Below are positions 53,653-58,595 of a stretch of DNA of 64,000 bases, one piece after another. Origin of the DNA: Bacteroidales bacterium (lineage in GTDB: Bacteria; Bacteroidota; Bacteroidia; Bacteroidales; VadinHA17); assembly GCA_024762655.1 (NCBI GenBank), contig JANTHB010000007.1, positions 97 to 64,096 on the forward strand, in the 5' to 3' direction. A model generated the notes under the pieces. It did no database searches and had not been told where the DNA came from. It saw nothing but the letters and a program-made list of their open reading frames with translations. Numbering within the stretch: the first letter of the stretch is position 1; each line of letters begins with the position of its first letter. The translations under genes were made by a program, and so were the position numbers.

Positions 53653-54906
53653 ATGACCTTAAAGCGTGTAGTAGTTACAGGGTTAGGAGCACTGACCCCG
53701 TTGGGAAATAATGTACCTGATTTCTGGGAAGCATTGGCTAACGGAGTAAGTGGCTCCAGCCTTATTACACGTTTTGACACGGAGAAATTTAAAACTCATT
53801 TTGCCTGCGAGGTAAAAAACTTCGATCCCAAAGAACATTTCGAACGGAAAGAATTACGCAAACTGGATCTGTTCTGTCAGTTTGCCCTGGTCTCGGCCGA
53901 TGAAGCCATCAGGGATGCCGGGATAGACAAAGCTTCGGTAGACCACAACCGCGTGGGTGTGATCTACGGTTCAGGAATCGGAGGGTTACAAACCTTTTAT
54001 GAAGAGATTAAATCCTTTGTGGAAGGCGACGGAACGCCCCGGTTCAGCCCGTTTTTTATCCCGAAGATCATTTCAGACATTGCAGCAGGTCATATTTCCA
54101 TAAAATACGGGTTCAGAGGGCCTAATTTTGCAACGGTTTCGGCCTGCTCGACGGCTGCCAATGCCATCATTGATGCCTACAATTATATCCGTCTGGGCAA
54201 AGCGGAGCTTTTTGTCACCGGCGGTGCGGAAGCTCCTATCAACAGGGTAGGGATAGGAGGATTCAATGCAATCATGGCCATCAGTACCAACAACGACGAG
54301 TATAAGACCGCATCCCGGCCTTTCGACAAGACACGTGACGGATTTGTTATGGGAGAAGGCGCCGGCACGTTGATTCTGGAAGAACTGGAACATGCCAAAG
54401 CCCGAGGAGCTAAAATCTACGCGGAGGTGGCCGGCGCAGGTTTATCGGCAGACGCGTACCATATGACCGCTCCTCATCCGGAAGGACTGGGCGCTGCCCT
54501 GGTCATGAAAGAAGCACTGGACGATGCAGGCATGACCCCGGAAGATGTTGATTATATCAACGTACACGGAACAGCTACCCCGCGCGGAGATATCTCCGAA
54601 ATTCAAGCCATCCAGAAACTTTTCGGAGAACATGCCTACCGTATTAATATCAGTTCCACAAAATCCATGACAGGGCACCTGCTGGGTGCTGCCGGCGCCG
54701 CTGAAGCCATTGCCAGTATTATGGCAATCCGGAAAGGAATCGTCCCCCCCACAATTAATCATTTTGTCGATGATCCCGAAATTGATCCTAAACTGGATCT
54801 CACCTTCAATAAAGCTGTGAAAAAAGAGGTGAAGGTAGCTTTAAGCAACACATTTGGTTTTGGCGGTCATAATGCCTCCATCATCCTAAAAAAATTTGAG
54901 TCCTAG
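53653..54906 (+). CDS. fabF: 3-oxoacyl-ACP synthase II
   Basis: RVVVTGLG, SAC active-site Cys, NVHGT, KSMTGHLLG, NTFGFGG. Confidence 0.95.
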   Translation: MTLKRVVVTGLGALTPLGNNVPDFWEALANGVSGSSLITRFDTEKFKTHFACEVKNFDPKEHFERKELRKLDLFCQFALVSADEAIRDAGIDKASVDHNRVGVIYGSGIGGLQTFYEEIKSFVEGDGTPRFSPFFIPKIISDIAAGHISIKYGFRGPNFATVSACSTAANAIIDAYNYIRLGKAELFVTGGAEAPINRVGIGGFNAIMAISTNNDEYKTASRPFDKTRDGFVMGEGAGTLILEELEHAKARGAKIYAEVAGAGLSADAYHMTAPHPEGLGAALVMKEALDDAGMTPEDVDYINVHGTATPRGDISEIQAIQKLFGEHAYRINISSTKSMTGHLLGAAGAAEAIASIMAIRKGIVPPTINHFVDDPEIDPKLDLTFNKAVKKEVKVALSNTFGFGGHNASIILKKFES

Positions 54907-54909
54907 CCA

Positions 54910-55635
54910 GTGCTTTCTTTTCATTTGAAACACCCCCCTCCCCTTTTACCTAACCAAAAGGGGTTTTATATGCAAATAAAAAAACTGCTCCCCTATTCCC
55001 CACGCAACATAACCCTTTATCAGATCGCCTTTATTACACGTTCCAGGTCCCTGCCTGTCCCAGGGGAACCCATCAATAATGAAAGACTGGAATTTCTGGG
55101 GGATACCGTCATCAGCACCATTATCTCCGAACACCTATACCGGTTATATCCCGAAAAAAACGAGGGAGAACTATCAAAACTCAGGTCCCGGATCGTAAAC
55201 GGGAACACACTGAATGAAATTGCTCTTAAACTGAAGCTGGATCAGCTTGTGCAATATACCTACCATTCCGAGAACCAGCATAAACATATTTTCGGAGATG
55301 TGTTTGAAGCATTTATAGGAGCCCTGTTCCTGGACCAGGGCTATAAAAAGACACAAAGGTATTTCAACCAAATTCTTTTTAAAAAATATATTGATCTCCC
55401 TGAGATCCTGGAAACAGAAACCGATTTTAAAAGCATGATGCTGGTGTGGGCTCAAAAAAACCACAGGAAACTTTTTTTTGTCACGCAGGAAAGTATTAAT
55501 GACAATGGAAAAAAGGTGTTCCGGTCTTTATTGCAGACGAAAAACAGCATCCTCGGAGAAGGAAACGGAAACTCCAAAAAAGAAGCCGAACAAATAGCAG
55601 CACAGAAAGCGTGGGAAGAAATTCACCCGGACTGA
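54910..55635 (+). CDS. rnc: Ribonuclease III
   Basis: NERLEFLGD, DVFEAFIGA, C-terminal dsRBD GNSKKEAEQ.AA. Confidence 0.92.
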   Translation: MLSFHLKHPPPLLPNQKGFYMQIKKLLPYSPRNITLYQIAFITRSRSLPVPGEPINNERLEFLGDTVISTIISEHLYRLYPEKNEGELSKLRSRIVNGNTLNEIALKLKLDQLVQYTYHSENQHKHIFGDVFEAFIGALFLDQGYKKTQRYFNQILFKKYIDLPEILETETDFKSMMLVWAQKNHRKLFFVTQESINDNGKKVFRSLLQTKNSILGEGNGNSKKEAEQIAAQKAWEEIHPD

Positions 55636-55663
55636 TACGGTCCTGATTTTACATCTCATATTT

Positions 55664-56089
55664 ATGGCTAAAATAAAAAAACATCGTCTTTCCCTTGAAC
55701 CGGACCGGGATTACTACCTGGCAGCAATTGCCTCGCATGAAAAAGGGTATCATATGGGATGGATTCTGAACCGGGAACTGGGAACGCATTTTGTCCGCTC
55801 GGCCGATTTCGGCACAACCCGAAAAAATACCAACCTTCTGTTCCCCGTATTTGCCTGGGAAGATGAAAACAAAATGCTTTCGTGGCATCTTATCTCAAAC
55901 CGTTCCGAGCATGGTTTTCTCTTTGATGATTTAAAAAACATTGATTTCCTCCTGCATATTACTCCCCGCCCCGGAGATGCATTTATTTACGATCTGGAAA
56001 ACAAACTTAAAACCATTCCCGTAATTTACGCCTTTTTCCCGGTATATCCGGAGGAATACCCAACCGCCGACGCGCTGCAGTTTGACTGA
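55664..56089 (+). CDS. IPExxxVDY-family-like hypothetical protein
   Basis: 141 aa, LISNR...FLFDDLKNIDFLL; follows rnc as I recall for other Bacteroidota. Confidence 0.65.
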   Translation: MAKIKKHRLSLEPDRDYYLAAIASHEKGYHMGWILNRELGTHFVRSADFGTTRKNTNLLFPVFAWEDENKMLSWHLISNRSEHGFLFDDLKNIDFLLHITPRPGDAFIYDLENKLKTIPVIYAFFPVYPEEYPTADALQFD

Positions 56090-56091
56090 AC

Positions 56092-56127
56092 AAAAAAAAA
56101 GAGCAGGTGAAATTTCACCTGCTCTTT
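56092..56127 (-). terminator. Intrinsic terminator oriented for a minus-strand transcript
   Basis: Perfect palindrome AAAGAGCAGGTGAAATTTCACCTGCTCTTT; U9 tail on minus strand, only U3 on plus. Confidence 0.8.
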
Positions 56128-56180
56128 CCGTATTAACCCTTTTATTAACCTAAACCAAAAACCTACTGCTTTTGTTCTGT
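56092..56180 (-). ncRNA. Candidate sigma54-dependent small RNA (~90 nt)
   Basis: Bounded by a canonical -24/-12 promoter and a U9 terminator; no ATG; GU-rich body. Confidence 0.65.
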
Positions 56181-56189
56181 TATGAGAAG

Positions 56190-56206
56190 TGCAATTTTCA
56201 TGCCAA
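56190..56206 (-). promoter_or_regulatory. sigma54 (RpoN) -24/-12 promoter
   Basis: TTGGCATGAAAATTGCA: GG-N10-GC, one mismatch from TGGCAC-N5-TTGCW. Confidence 0.75.
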
Positions 56207-56307
56207 ACTCATTATTTCTGCTCTTTGTTTTAAATAACGTGTAATTATTAAAAATGTTTCAAACAACCTTCATTATTTTTGAACATTACGAAGATAAGAG
56301 GAATTTA

Positions 56308-56343
56308 TGTTAACAACGTTTAAGGGATGTTAAAGATTGTTAA
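56308..56343 (+). promoter_or_regulatory. Four 10-bp-phased (T/G)(G/T)TTAA direct repeats upstream of rprX, a putative OmpR-family operator
   Basis: TGTTAA 56308, GTTTAA 56318, TGTTAA 56328, TGTTAA 56338; -7 box TATCTTTG at 56371-56378. Confidence 0.55.
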
Positions 56344-56385
56344 AACCCAGGGGGGTAAGATGGAAAGAGTTATCTTTGTAAAACC

Positions 56386-57897
56386 ATGAATAAAAAGACC
56401 ATATGGATATTATCCGGAATCATGGCAATAGGGATGGTCGCGCTTGTTATGATTCAGATCTACTGGTTAAACCACGCCCTGGAGGTAAAAAGTCATCAAT
56501 TCAGACAAACGGTAAATGCTGCTTGCAAAGAAGTTATCTCACAACTGGAAAAAAAGGAAATCTACAATATCGTTTTACGGGAAATACACATCGAATCAGG
56601 GCAAACCGATATATATTCCGAGGACGAAAACCCGGATTTTTTCATGAATCCAGATTTATCCCAAGAGATGACCCCTATCCCCGGCCGGGAAACCATCACC
56701 AATAAATTTACCGCTTTAGACACCCTGCTGCTGACGGGACGCATTAACGGGATTTTAGATGAAGCAAACAACAACAGAACCACCCTCATTGAAGCCAATA
56801 GAACCCGCATGGTTAAACATATCATGGAAAAACTTTCACAACCCCCTCCCGATATTCAGAAAAGGGTTCAACCGGTGGAATTATTTTATCTTATTAAAAA
56901 CACGCTGGCAAAAAACGGGATCAACCAGCCTTTTGAATTTGCAATTATCAAAGATCATTCAAAAGTCATATACAAAACCCCTGGATACAACAATAAACAC
57001 AAGTATGCCAACACCTTCGAGCAACCTCTTTTCCCCAACGACATGGTCAATCAGAATAACTCGCTGGTCCTCTATTTTCCGGATGAACACAAATACCTTG
57101 TACGGTCGCTGGGATGGATAGGATATCTGTCCCTGGCCCTGGCAATCTTTTTTATGGTCGTTTTTCTGGGAACATTATATATCATTTTGAGACAAAAAAG
57201 GATAACAGACATTAAAACCGATTTTGTCAACAACATGACCCACGAACTTAAAACCCCGATCTCTACCATCTCTCTGGCTTCCCAGATGCTCAAAGACAAA
57301 AGCATACTCAACAGTGATAAAAACATAGATCATATTGCCCGTGTGATTGACGATGAAACCAACAGATTAAGTCACCAGGTGGAAAAAGTGTTACAGATGG
57401 CCGTTTTTGAGCGTGGCAGAGTCAAACTCAAGAAAAAAGACACGGATATCCACAAGCTCCTGACCCATGTGATCCAGAACTTTTCCATAAGAATACAAAA
57501 TAAAAACGGGAAGATCGTGTACGATTTTATGGCGGAGCATCCGGTAATCCCCGTGGATGAGATGCACATTACCAATGTTTTCTCCAACCTGGTAGACAAC
57601 GCGATTAAATACAGCAGGGAAGCCCCCTTGATCTATATTAAAACCGAGAACAATCAGAAAGGAATATTGATCCATGTGCGTGACAACGGAATCGGCTTAT
57701 CAAAAGAGGATCAGAAAAAAATATTCGACCAGTTCTACCGCGTTCCAACCGGGAATATCCACGATGCAAAGGGGTTTGGATTGGGACTAAGCTATGTCAA
57801 GAAGATCATTGAAGACCATAACGGAACCATTGCCGTAGAAAGCCAGATGAACAAAGGAACCACATTTTCTGTATTTTTACCTTTTAATACAAACTGA
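56386..57897 (+). CDS. rprX: Sensor histidine kinase, RprX-like
   Basis: Two TMs, NNMTHELKTP H-box, NLVDNAIKY, DNGIG, GFGLGL; N-terminus resembles Bacteroides RprX. Confidence 0.82.
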   Translation: MNKKTIWILSGIMAIGMVALVMIQIYWLNHALEVKSHQFRQTVNAACKEVISQLEKKEIYNIVLREIHIESGQTDIYSEDENPDFFMNPDLSQEMTPIPGRETITNKFTALDTLLLTGRINGILDEANNNRTTLIEANRTRMVKHIMEKLSQPPPDIQKRVQPVELFYLIKNTLAKNGINQPFEFAIIKDHSKVIYKTPGYNNKHKYANTFEQPLFPNDMVNQNNSLVLYFPDEHKYLVRSLGWIGYLSLALAIFFMVVFLGTLYIILRQKRITDIKTDFVNNMTHELKTPISTISLASQMLKDKSILNSDKNIDHIARVIDDETNRLSHQVEKVLQMAVFERGRVKLKKKDTDIHKLLTHVIQNFSIRIQNKNGKIVYDFMAEHPVIPVDEMHITNVFSNLVDNAIKYSREAPLIYIKTENNQKGILIHVRDNGIGLSKEDQKKIFDQFYRVPTGNIHDAKGFGLGLSYVKKIIEDHNGTIAVESQMNKGTTFSVFLPFNTN

Positions 57898-57911
57898 TAA
57901 CATACGCACTT

Positions 57912-58595
57912 ATGGACAAAATCCGCATTTTACTGGCAGAAGATGATGAGAACCTGGGAATGTTATTAAAAGAATATCTCCGGGCCAAAGGGTTTGAAAC
58001 CGAATTGTTCACTGACGGAGACCATGCATACAAAGGTTTCATCTCCGATCATTTCGACCTGTGCCTGCTGGATATTATGATGCCGGTGAAGGATGGGTTT
58101 ACCCTGGCACGCGAAATCAGACAGTTGAATTCGGACATACCCATCATCTTTCTCACTGCTAAATCCATGAAAGAAGACGTCTTTGAAGGATTTCGTATCG
58201 GAGCGGATGATTATATCACCAAACCTTTCAGCATGGAGGAACTCCTTTTTCGCATTGAAGCGATCCTCCGGCGAACAAAATCAGGCCAGGGAGCAAGCCA
58301 GGACCAGTTTAAAATCGGAAAATATCTGTTCGATGCCAACAAACAGGAACTGATTTTCGGGAACCAGGTACAGAAGATAACTACGAAGGAATCCGAACTA
58401 TTGCGCCTGCTATGCAACAATAAAAACAAAATACTGGAGCGAAACTTTGCCCTGCGCACCATCTGGATGGATGATAATTATTTCAATGCCAGGAGCATGG
58501 ACGTCTATATAACCAAATTAAGAAAATATCTGAAAGAGGATCCGTCCGTCGAGATCATCAACATCCACGGAAAAGGATATAAACTGATCTGTTAA
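57912..58595 (+). CDS. rprY: OmpR-family response regulator, RprY-like
   Basis: EDDENLG, DIMMP, FLTAK, DNYFNARSMDVYITKLRK, IHGKGYKL as in Bacteroides RprY. Confidence 0.85.
   Translation: MDKIRILLAEDDENLGMLLKEYLRAKGFETELFTDGDHAYKGFISDHFDLCLLDIMMPVKDGFTLAREIRQLNSDIPIIFLTAKSMKEDVFEGFRIGADDYITKPFSMEELLFRIEAILRRTKSGQGASQDQFKIGKYLFDANKQELIFGNQVQKITTKESELLRLLCNNKNKILERNFALRTIWMDDNYFNARSMDVYITKLRKYLKEDPSVEIINIHGKGYKLIC

Follow-up and report, generated by a model that had tools for sequence, protein, structure and literature searches.

The window is a 64,000-nt stretch of a Bacteroidales genome, here called G000. Its genes around the region of interest lie on the plus strand. fabF (53653–54906) is upstream of rnc (54910–55635), and rnc is followed by a 141-aa gene of the IPExxxVDY family (55664–56089; NF033205, 75.5 bits). 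Beyond an intergenic region come an rprX-like histidine kinase gene (56386–57897; Pfam HisKA/HATPase_c) and the response regulator gene rprY (57912–58595; Pfam Response_reg/Trans_reg_C). A sequence-only reading of this DNA had placed a candidate sigma-54-dependent small RNA on the minus strand, divergent from rprXY. The naming of the regulator is upheld, as NCBIfam identifies it as an RprY equivalog (387.1 bits, cut-off 370). The predicted RNA spans 56092–56180 on the minus strand (~88 nt), with its start taken from promoter geometry and its end at the U-tract. It is convergent with the IPExxxVDY gene, which ends 2 nt before the A-run of the sRNA terminator. The gene order rnc, IPExxxVDY gene, sRNA and rprX(-rprY) is also found in other genera.

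A terminator scan places an intrinsic terminator at 56092–56129 on the minus strand, about 50 nt downstream of the promoter. It consists of a hairpin at 56129–56096 (15 pairs, 6 G-C, loop of 4) and a run of nine U residues (56100–56092). On the plus strand, no more than TTT follows this hairpin, so the earlier description of a terminator facing the minus strand was accurate. The 88-nt RNA folds at −29.7 kcal/mol, compared with −13.9 ± 2.7 kcal/mol in shuffles (z −5.9). The terminator accounts for nearly all of this energy; the first 50 nt hold weak pairs only. This weakly structured part contains the conserved core AAGCAGUAGGUUUUUGGUUUAGGUUAAUAAAAGGGUUAAUACGG, located by alignment at 56128–56171 on the minus strand. 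The core is built of GGUU(U)A repeats and is the proposed seed region. The predicted RNA contains no AUG, and the minus strand from 56090 to 56385 has no ORF of at least 40 aa, in line with the non-coding unit claimed before. The U-run differs in length between relatives (U5, U6, UUGUUUUU), so no reading frame is kept. An Rfam match to L20_leader (32 bits, cut-off 58.7) was judged an artefact of the terminator and A/U composition.

Four direct repeats of the form TTAA[C/A/G], spaced by exactly 10 bp, lie between rprX and the sRNA unit (56310–56347). They recur at the same place in every genus examined. A 10-bp repeat spacing is typical of OmpR/PhoB-type regulators, which makes RprY the obvious candidate binder. 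The repeats are probably RprY (OmpR-type) boxes, predicted to serve both autoregulation and the divergent unit. A −7 box, TATCTTTG, is found at 56371–56378. It stands only 8 nt before the rprX ATG, which implies a very short rprX leader. A −7 box with one mismatch, TATCTTCG, is present on the minus strand downstream of the repeats (56296–56289) and may yield a longer sRNA precursor of ~200 nt.

When the intergenic region was used as a DNA query against 41 genomes, 16 gave matches, including G000 and all 10 other genomes of its genus. The best-kept part of the region is exactly the predicted RNA. We extracted 17 copies from 12 genomes (11 of the window's genus and one of a sister genus; the genus set) and aligned 16 of them. 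Forty columns are invariant and correspond to a 44-nt core, AAGCAGUAGGUUUUU(U)GGUUUAGGUUAAUAAAAGGGUUAAUACGG; the flanks and the terminator stem vary. The whole unit is duplicated in tandem in G004, G005, G006 and G008, with 2–3 copies ~250–320 nt apart, which fits a gene-like unit. The spacer between tandem copies in G005 (locus L009, contig C163) carries a CATT/CACT microsatellite-like run, CATTCACTCATTCACTCATTCATTCATTCATT.

A broader alignment holds 21 homologues from nine genera of the window's family and three other families. All 21 have a hairpin of −16 to −26 kcal/mol before a U-run. In the 9-pair terminator helix, 83.9% of alignment cells are paired, against 71.5 ± 1.9% in shuffles (none of 500 reaches the observed value) and 41–67% when the partner strand is slid. 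Six of the nine pairs change on both sides. Two models were searched against other genomes. The first, R1, was built on an RNAalifold structure that is not the terminator and served as a sequence-dominated model; it under-detects, matching 25 of 151 family genomes. The second, R2, was built from the 21-homologue alignment, free of any FopS-annotated sequence, and applied at E ≤0.001. R2 matches 142 of the 151 family genomes and 18 of 20 genera, mostly once or twice per genome. Both models match the window at 56093–56177 (G000:C7:56189–56273), with 102.8 bits for R1 and 83.7 bits for R2. Near one weak R1 match, in G001, lies a SAM-II riboswitch match (L051 2238–2296, G001:C60; 69.1 bits, cut-off 44).

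The convergent and divergent neighbours raise a cis explanation, in which the unit acts by antisense or termination against the IPExxxVDY–rnc operon or interferes with the divergent rprX promoter. The hairpin, 2 nt beyond the stop codon of the IPExxxVDY gene, could act on both strands, and the synteny with IPExxxVDY, rnc and rprX is kept across genera. Set against this, the plus strand offers only three U residues after the hairpin, and it is the single-stranded core that is invariant, not the terminator. The unit is also duplicated in tandem, a second copy lies at an unrelated locus (see below), and the sRNA promoter is ~180 nt from the rprX −7 box. We consider a cis role quite improbable and read the unit as a stand-alone gene.

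The promoter of this gene is predicted at 56190–56206 on the minus strand. The plus-strand letters there are tgcaattttcatgccaa, whose reverse complement, TTGGCATGAAAATTGCA, has GG (−24) and GC (−12) 10 nt apart, as had been reported. The string TGGCATGAAAATTGCA is a full match to the sigma-54 consensus TGGCAY-N5-TTGCW. With the C of TTGC taken as −12, transcription would start at 56179/56180. A start near 56179, as put forward before, agrees with this geometry; 56179 is a C, however, and the RNA string given with it begins at the A of 56180. RpoN is encoded in G000 (Sigma54_DBD, 185 bits), which settles a check that had been called for, together with four full enhancer-binding proteins (Sigma54_activat, 215–248 bits), whose genes are on contigs C35, C70, C76 and C32. 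No conserved activator binding site was recognised upstream of the promoter.

Promoters of this type drive sRNAs elsewhere. Qrr1–5 and GlmY/GlmZ are Proteobacterial sRNAs with a sigma-54 −24/−12 promoter that needs an AAA+ activator, and they depend on Hfq or RapZ. They have the promoter type in common with the window RNA, but show no sequence relation to it and have other targets.

The promoter pattern by itself barely exceeds chance. The window has one match to TGGCAYN5TTGCW where 0.11 would be expected, and at least one match turns up in 9 of 100 shuffled windows. This rate of chance occurrence is what speaks for dismissing the unit as a promoter-like string that happens to lie beside a neighbouring gene's terminator. 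Such a reading is contradicted by what is conserved in 142 of the 151 family genomes, namely the core, the promoter and a covarying terminator, and we give it almost no credence. The locus very probably holds a real sRNA gene. The strength of the case for its promoter lies in the conservation of the motif in relatives, not in the pattern alone.

Within the genus set, GGCA[CT]G-N4-TTGC stands directly upstream of 11 of the 17 copies, and the G003 copy has TTGA at −12. Five copies lack an adjacent motif, four of which are first tandem copies or a copy cut by a contig end. In two other genera, TTGGCACG-N4-TTG[T/C/A] is found at the same distance in 13 of 15 loci. We then read 21 further family loci (20 newly fetched, and G020 read again). 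The GGCA[CT]-N5-TTG motif is present in 18 of these and degenerate in three. It lies 13–15 nt before the model match in 10 loci of six genera, so that the conserved U-run would come right after the predicted start. In the other eight loci (five genera) the distance upstream is 126–185 nt, and the motif falls within the 3′ end of a secreted, Lys/Glu-rich ORF divergent from rprX. The promoter-to-RNA geometry is thus kept across genera, as the sequence-only reading had required of relatives. Genus g14 (L039–L046) has, in addition, a conserved palindrome, CTGATATTTGCATCAG, that stops 2 nt short of ATGGCAC in the sigma-54 motif. The palindrome was not seen in the window's genus, and it may be a site for a regulator or bending protein.

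Outside the family the motif is rare. We examined 29 order-level R2 loci, one per genome: 28 from other families, and G020, which belongs to the window's family and has a degenerate motif. The motif occurs within 200 nt upstream in G028 alone, and many of these loci have TAnnTTTG boxes. Among 20 rprX-upstream regions across the order, one has an sRNA with a sigma-54-type motif, and in two others a FopS-like RNA follows an ordinary −7 box. The sigma-54 link therefore marks the window's family and at least one other, not the whole superfamily.

These counts bear on a second way of reading the promoter, in which the RNA is real, GGCA-N5-TTGC is not a working sigma-54 promoter, and an ordinary promoter near the RprY-type boxes makes a longer precursor that is processed. 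The first tandem copies of G006 and G004 fit this reading: they have no sigma-54 motif, and each is preceded by four TTAAC repeats together with TAcTTTTG, an ordinary Bacteroidota-type box. The G184 and G034 homologues, like the second G000 copy, have −7 boxes only, 28 of the 29 order-level loci are without the motif, and many homologues have TTGT or TTGA at −12 in place of the canonical TTGC. The window itself has the one-mismatch box TATCTTCG downstream of the repeats. Against a non-functional motif stand its fixed position 13–15 nt before the RNA in the 10 loci of six further genera and its retention even inside a coding region in eight loci. Chance occurrence, as estimated from base composition, is expected far below once per locus, and G000 encodes the sigma-54 machinery. 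An ordinary promoter as the sole source of the window RNA is unlikely, and transcription of the sRNA is probably sigma-54-driven.

A relation to the Bacteroides sRNA FopS had also been suggested. An Rfam scan of 54000–58000 gave nothing at Rfam thresholds. FopS (RF04319) scores 21.5 bits on the window copy (E 5), below its gathering threshold of 56, and the AGGUUAAUAAAA string of the window RNA aligns exactly to the FopS model consensus. At 14 of 17 loci in relatives, the top-scoring Rfam family for the RNA is FopS (27.2–40.4 bits), and the G028 homologue reaches 43.5 bits against the FopS model. At the level of the order, 56 of 151 genomes have an R2 match, the largest number of copies in a single genome being nine. 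We rescanned 15 loci with Rfam, 14 order-level R2 loci and the second copy in G000; R2 itself derives from the window's family and three rprX-linked homologues. Four of the 15 are bona fide FopS by Rfam (76.9, 76.8, 60.5 and 59.2 bits; gathering threshold 56), and these loci show TAnnTTTG boxes. Sub-threshold FopS scores in relatives (27–43 bits) and the retrieval of true FopS by R2 place the RNA in a FopS superfamily, outside the curated family. Of the suggested relation, distant kinship stands and Rfam membership does not.

The two RNAs share a size of 65–90 nt and a layout of U-run, AGGUUAA-type motif, terminator and U-tail. The window RNA has a AAGGUUAA-type motif followed by the terminator hairpin and U-tail. 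The FopS 5′ seed GUGUUUUUCAUGG (R1′) is absent at its 5′ end, where the window's genus has GUAGGUUUUUGG and no CAU. Most other genera of the family carry GAGGUUUUUUUCAUAGG or GAGGUUUUUUUCAUAGGUUAGGUUAGUUUUAGGGUUA, near the FopS consensus GUGUUUUUCAUgGUAUUAGAUUUAAGGUUAA. By this comparison the window's genus is a derived form that has lost the U-run–CAU seed.

The biology of FopS comes from Bacteroides thetaiotaomicron, as described in the available text of PMC11697453. It has 14 FopS genes with canonical sigma-ABfr promoters, and FopS is induced by bile salts. The FopS 5′ end pairs with susC start regions and blocks translation, which was shown experimentally. FopS and GibS are both bound by the RRM protein RbpB, which counteracts them; the RNA is the repressor. 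In common with this system, the window RNA is complementary to susC start regions and its genome has an RRM protein gene. Several features set it apart. It has a −24/−12 motif, not the canonical sigma-ABfr TAnnTTTG −7 box. FopS occurs in up to 15 copies per genome, in contrast to one or two in the window's family (two R2 matches in G000). The window RNA is in fixed synteny beside rprXY. Finally, its predicted pairing site is 10–20 nt upstream of the AUG, whereas FopS pairs across the AUG.

Two other Bacteroidota sRNAs were compared. GibS (RF04182) has no match in 54000–58000 at E up to 10. This GlcNAc-induced Bacteroides sRNA shares the R1 region with FopS (available text of PMC11697453 and PMC7366714) and resembles the window RNA in having a non-canonical promoter (PMC7366714, in part). 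It differs in its length of ~145 nt, and its PM2 promoter is a near-palindromic −10/−30 motif, not −24/−12 (PMC7366714, in part). We considered PM2 as a possible sigma-54 motif, but the near-palindromic −10/−30 description available from that source, given with no sequence, lends no support. SrcF of Segatella (272 nt) was also considered as a relative and is unrelated.

Across the G000 genome, the longest stretches exactly complementary to the core lie for the most part immediately before ATGAAA-type start sites of exported proteins. We compared 14 SusC/RagA genes above the NCBIfam cut-off with 4707 other ORF starts. By eye, a (U)AACC(U)AAA-like string lies 10–20 nt before the AUG in 10 of the 14 susC leaders. 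Contiguous complementarity of at least 8 nt in −40..+3 occurs in 8 of 14 susC leaders and in 5.2% of the other ORF starts, a crude list that includes spurious ORFs (Mann-Whitney p 2.4e-6). When the comparison is made with AT-rich starts only, the latter figure is 10.5% of 1023 (p 1.6e-4); the susC signal is partly compositional, as A-rich leaders meet a G/U-rich RNA. Six of the 14 leaders have 7 nt of complementarity or fewer. Mean susC complementarity is 8.14, against 6.65 ± 0.39 for dinucleotide shuffles of the RNA, and none of 500 shuffles reaches it. The core is complementary to the leader motif AACCUAAA of susC genes. AACCTAAA occurs in −35..−1 of 5 of 14 susC genes and 19 of 4707 other ORF starts (Fisher 4e-9). 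The best site is in a C36 susC gene (1049 aa), where UUAACCUUUUUUUAACCUAAA faces UUUAGGUUAAUAAAAGGGUUAA with ~20 of 21 nt paired by eye; a C73 susC site pairs over 13 nt.

Genome-wide enrichment of complementarity at start regions is only moderate. Exact 11-mers match 23 start regions, against 7.5 ± 4.0 in shuffles (shuffle maximum 25), and enrichment of 9-mers and 10-mers at start regions is not significant. An unrestricted RNAduplex ranking of targets gave long-loop artefacts, and contiguous complementarity was used instead. In other genera, complementarity of at least 8 nt to the genome's own RNA is present in 13 of 19 susC leaders of G116 and 6 of 10 of G012, both as counts without a control. 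A (U)UAACCUAAA(A)CU-like motif lies ~10–25 nt before the AUG in susC leaders of the three genera represented by G000, G116 and G012. This motif may serve FopS-type RNAs generally as a recognition element.

We favour, with some reserve, the view that the locus is a stand-alone gene for a ~88-nt trans-acting RNA of the FopS superfamily, driven by sigma-54, that pairs with susC leaders and blocks their translation. In this scheme, sigma-54 RNA polymerase, opened by one of the four enhancer-binding proteins, would start at ~56179/56180, and transcription would end at the hairpin and its U9 tract. The core GGUUUUUGGUUUAGGUUAAUAAAAGGGUUAA, rich in G and U and weakly structured, would then pair with A/C-rich leaders just before start codons. 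The main site is predicted to be (U)AACCUAAA in genes for SusC-type outer-membrane transporters, about 10–20 nt ahead of the AUG, with AACCUAAA/UUUAGGUU as the pairing elements. Pairing would block translation initiation, as FopS does in Bacteroides thetaiotaomicron. RprXY may be a second input through the nearby RprY-type boxes. That the RNA is made, that it uses sigma-54, that it pairs in vivo and that it represses are all points we infer from sequence. FopS-like repression of susC translation, taken on its own, is somewhat better than an even prospect.

The same core could serve a different end. The RNA may be real and mainly titrate a protein, such as a single RRM protein, through its four GGUU(U)A repeats in the manner of CsrB/RsmZ, with mRNA pairing secondary. 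The GGUU repeats do lie in a weakly structured region, G000 has one RRM_1 protein gene (C18:46764–46976), and the invariant core of 44 nt exceeds a typical seed. RbpB, moreover, binds FopS and GibS and counteracts them (PMC11697453, available text). What argues against titration as the main role is that complementarity is specifically enriched at susC leaders, above all 500 shuffles of the RNA, and that the leader motif is itself enriched at susC. In the FopS system as described there, it is also the RNA and not the protein that represses. We regard a protein sponge as improbable, and susC pairing by a trans-acting RNA as the better account.

G000 has a second member of the family, at C33:13399–13482 on the minus strand (locus L122; R2, 46.7 bits). 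It has a TAttTTTG −7 box and is without a sigma-54 motif. The scan for paralogues proposed earlier thus returned one further family member with an ordinary promoter box, and no second sigma-54 copy. With different promoter types, the two paralogues would answer to different sigma factors.

In eight genera a secreted Lys/Glu-rich ORF lies divergent from rprX. The sigma-54 motif falls within the 3′ end of this ORF, and the sRNA core follows in the 3′ UTR. The arrangement was first seen at L014–L016 and L033 and is also present at L179–L182, L184, L185, L188 and L191. The ORF is 192–253 aa long where measured and has no Pfam match. The first tandem copies in G006 and G004 retain a remnant of the Lys-rich end of this gene. 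Together, the 3′-end arrangement and the Lys-rich remnants suggest that the stand-alone sigma-54 unit of the window was derived by loss of the secreted ORF.

FopS-type RNAs have so far been described as a multicopy family of gut Bacteroides with housekeeping promoters. A related RNA is near-universal in another family of the order, mostly in one or two copies, in rprXY synteny and with a sigma-54-type promoter. If our reading is right, the poorly known sigma-54 regulon of Bacteroidota gains a post-transcriptional arm, a conserved susC leader motif can be named as the likely target, and an evolutionary origin is offered for FopS. In the literature searched, we met no description of a Bacteroidota sRNA that depends on sigma-54. 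The available portions of PMC10994844, PMC13750123 and PMC7366714 contain no RpoN or sigma-54 term.

A wider interpretation, which we hold only tentatively and think rather less likely than its negation, makes the locus the RNA arm of an envelope-stress circuit. Sigma-54 with its activator and RprXY, acting through the TTAAC boxes, would converge on an sRNA that shuts down SusC synthesis. The ancestral form would be the 3′ end of the secreted Lys/Glu-rich gene divergent from rprXY, with its internal sigma-54 promoter, and the FopS RNAs of Bacteroides would be a dispersed, re-promotered offshoot. Such a circuit would be an independent invention of the logic of sigma-E with MicA, RybB and MicL and of Cpx with CpxQ. 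MicA, RybB and MicL (sigma-E) and CpxQ (from the 3′ end of cpxP, divergent from cpxRA) are envelope-stress sRNAs that lower abundant envelope proteins. The layouts of cpxP–CpxQ and cutC–MicL resemble the eight-genus homologue, which lies at the 3′ end of a secreted gene with an internal promoter, divergent from two-component genes. The likeness of these sRNAs to the window locus is an analogy of design only, and the link to stress rests on other organisms. In Flavobacterium psychrophilum, the sigma-54 regulon includes protein quality control, envelope stress and exported proteins (PMC9723704, available text). Stress and chaperone genes are under the control of RprY in Porphyromonas gingivalis, and rprXY of B. 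fragilis reduces ompF in E. coli (both from the available text of PMC3646045). These findings are compatible with an envelope-stress circuit acting to reduce SusC synthesis, without demonstrating one.

Sigma-54-type motifs are also found elsewhere in G000. The GGCA-N5-TTG motif occurs in non-coding context before four ORFs with lipoprotein-like signal peptides (C1:53509, C15:2055, C50:1809 and C87:8731). The distance from motif to ATG is 30–33 nt in three of these and 81 nt in one. This set points to a small regulon of exported proteins.
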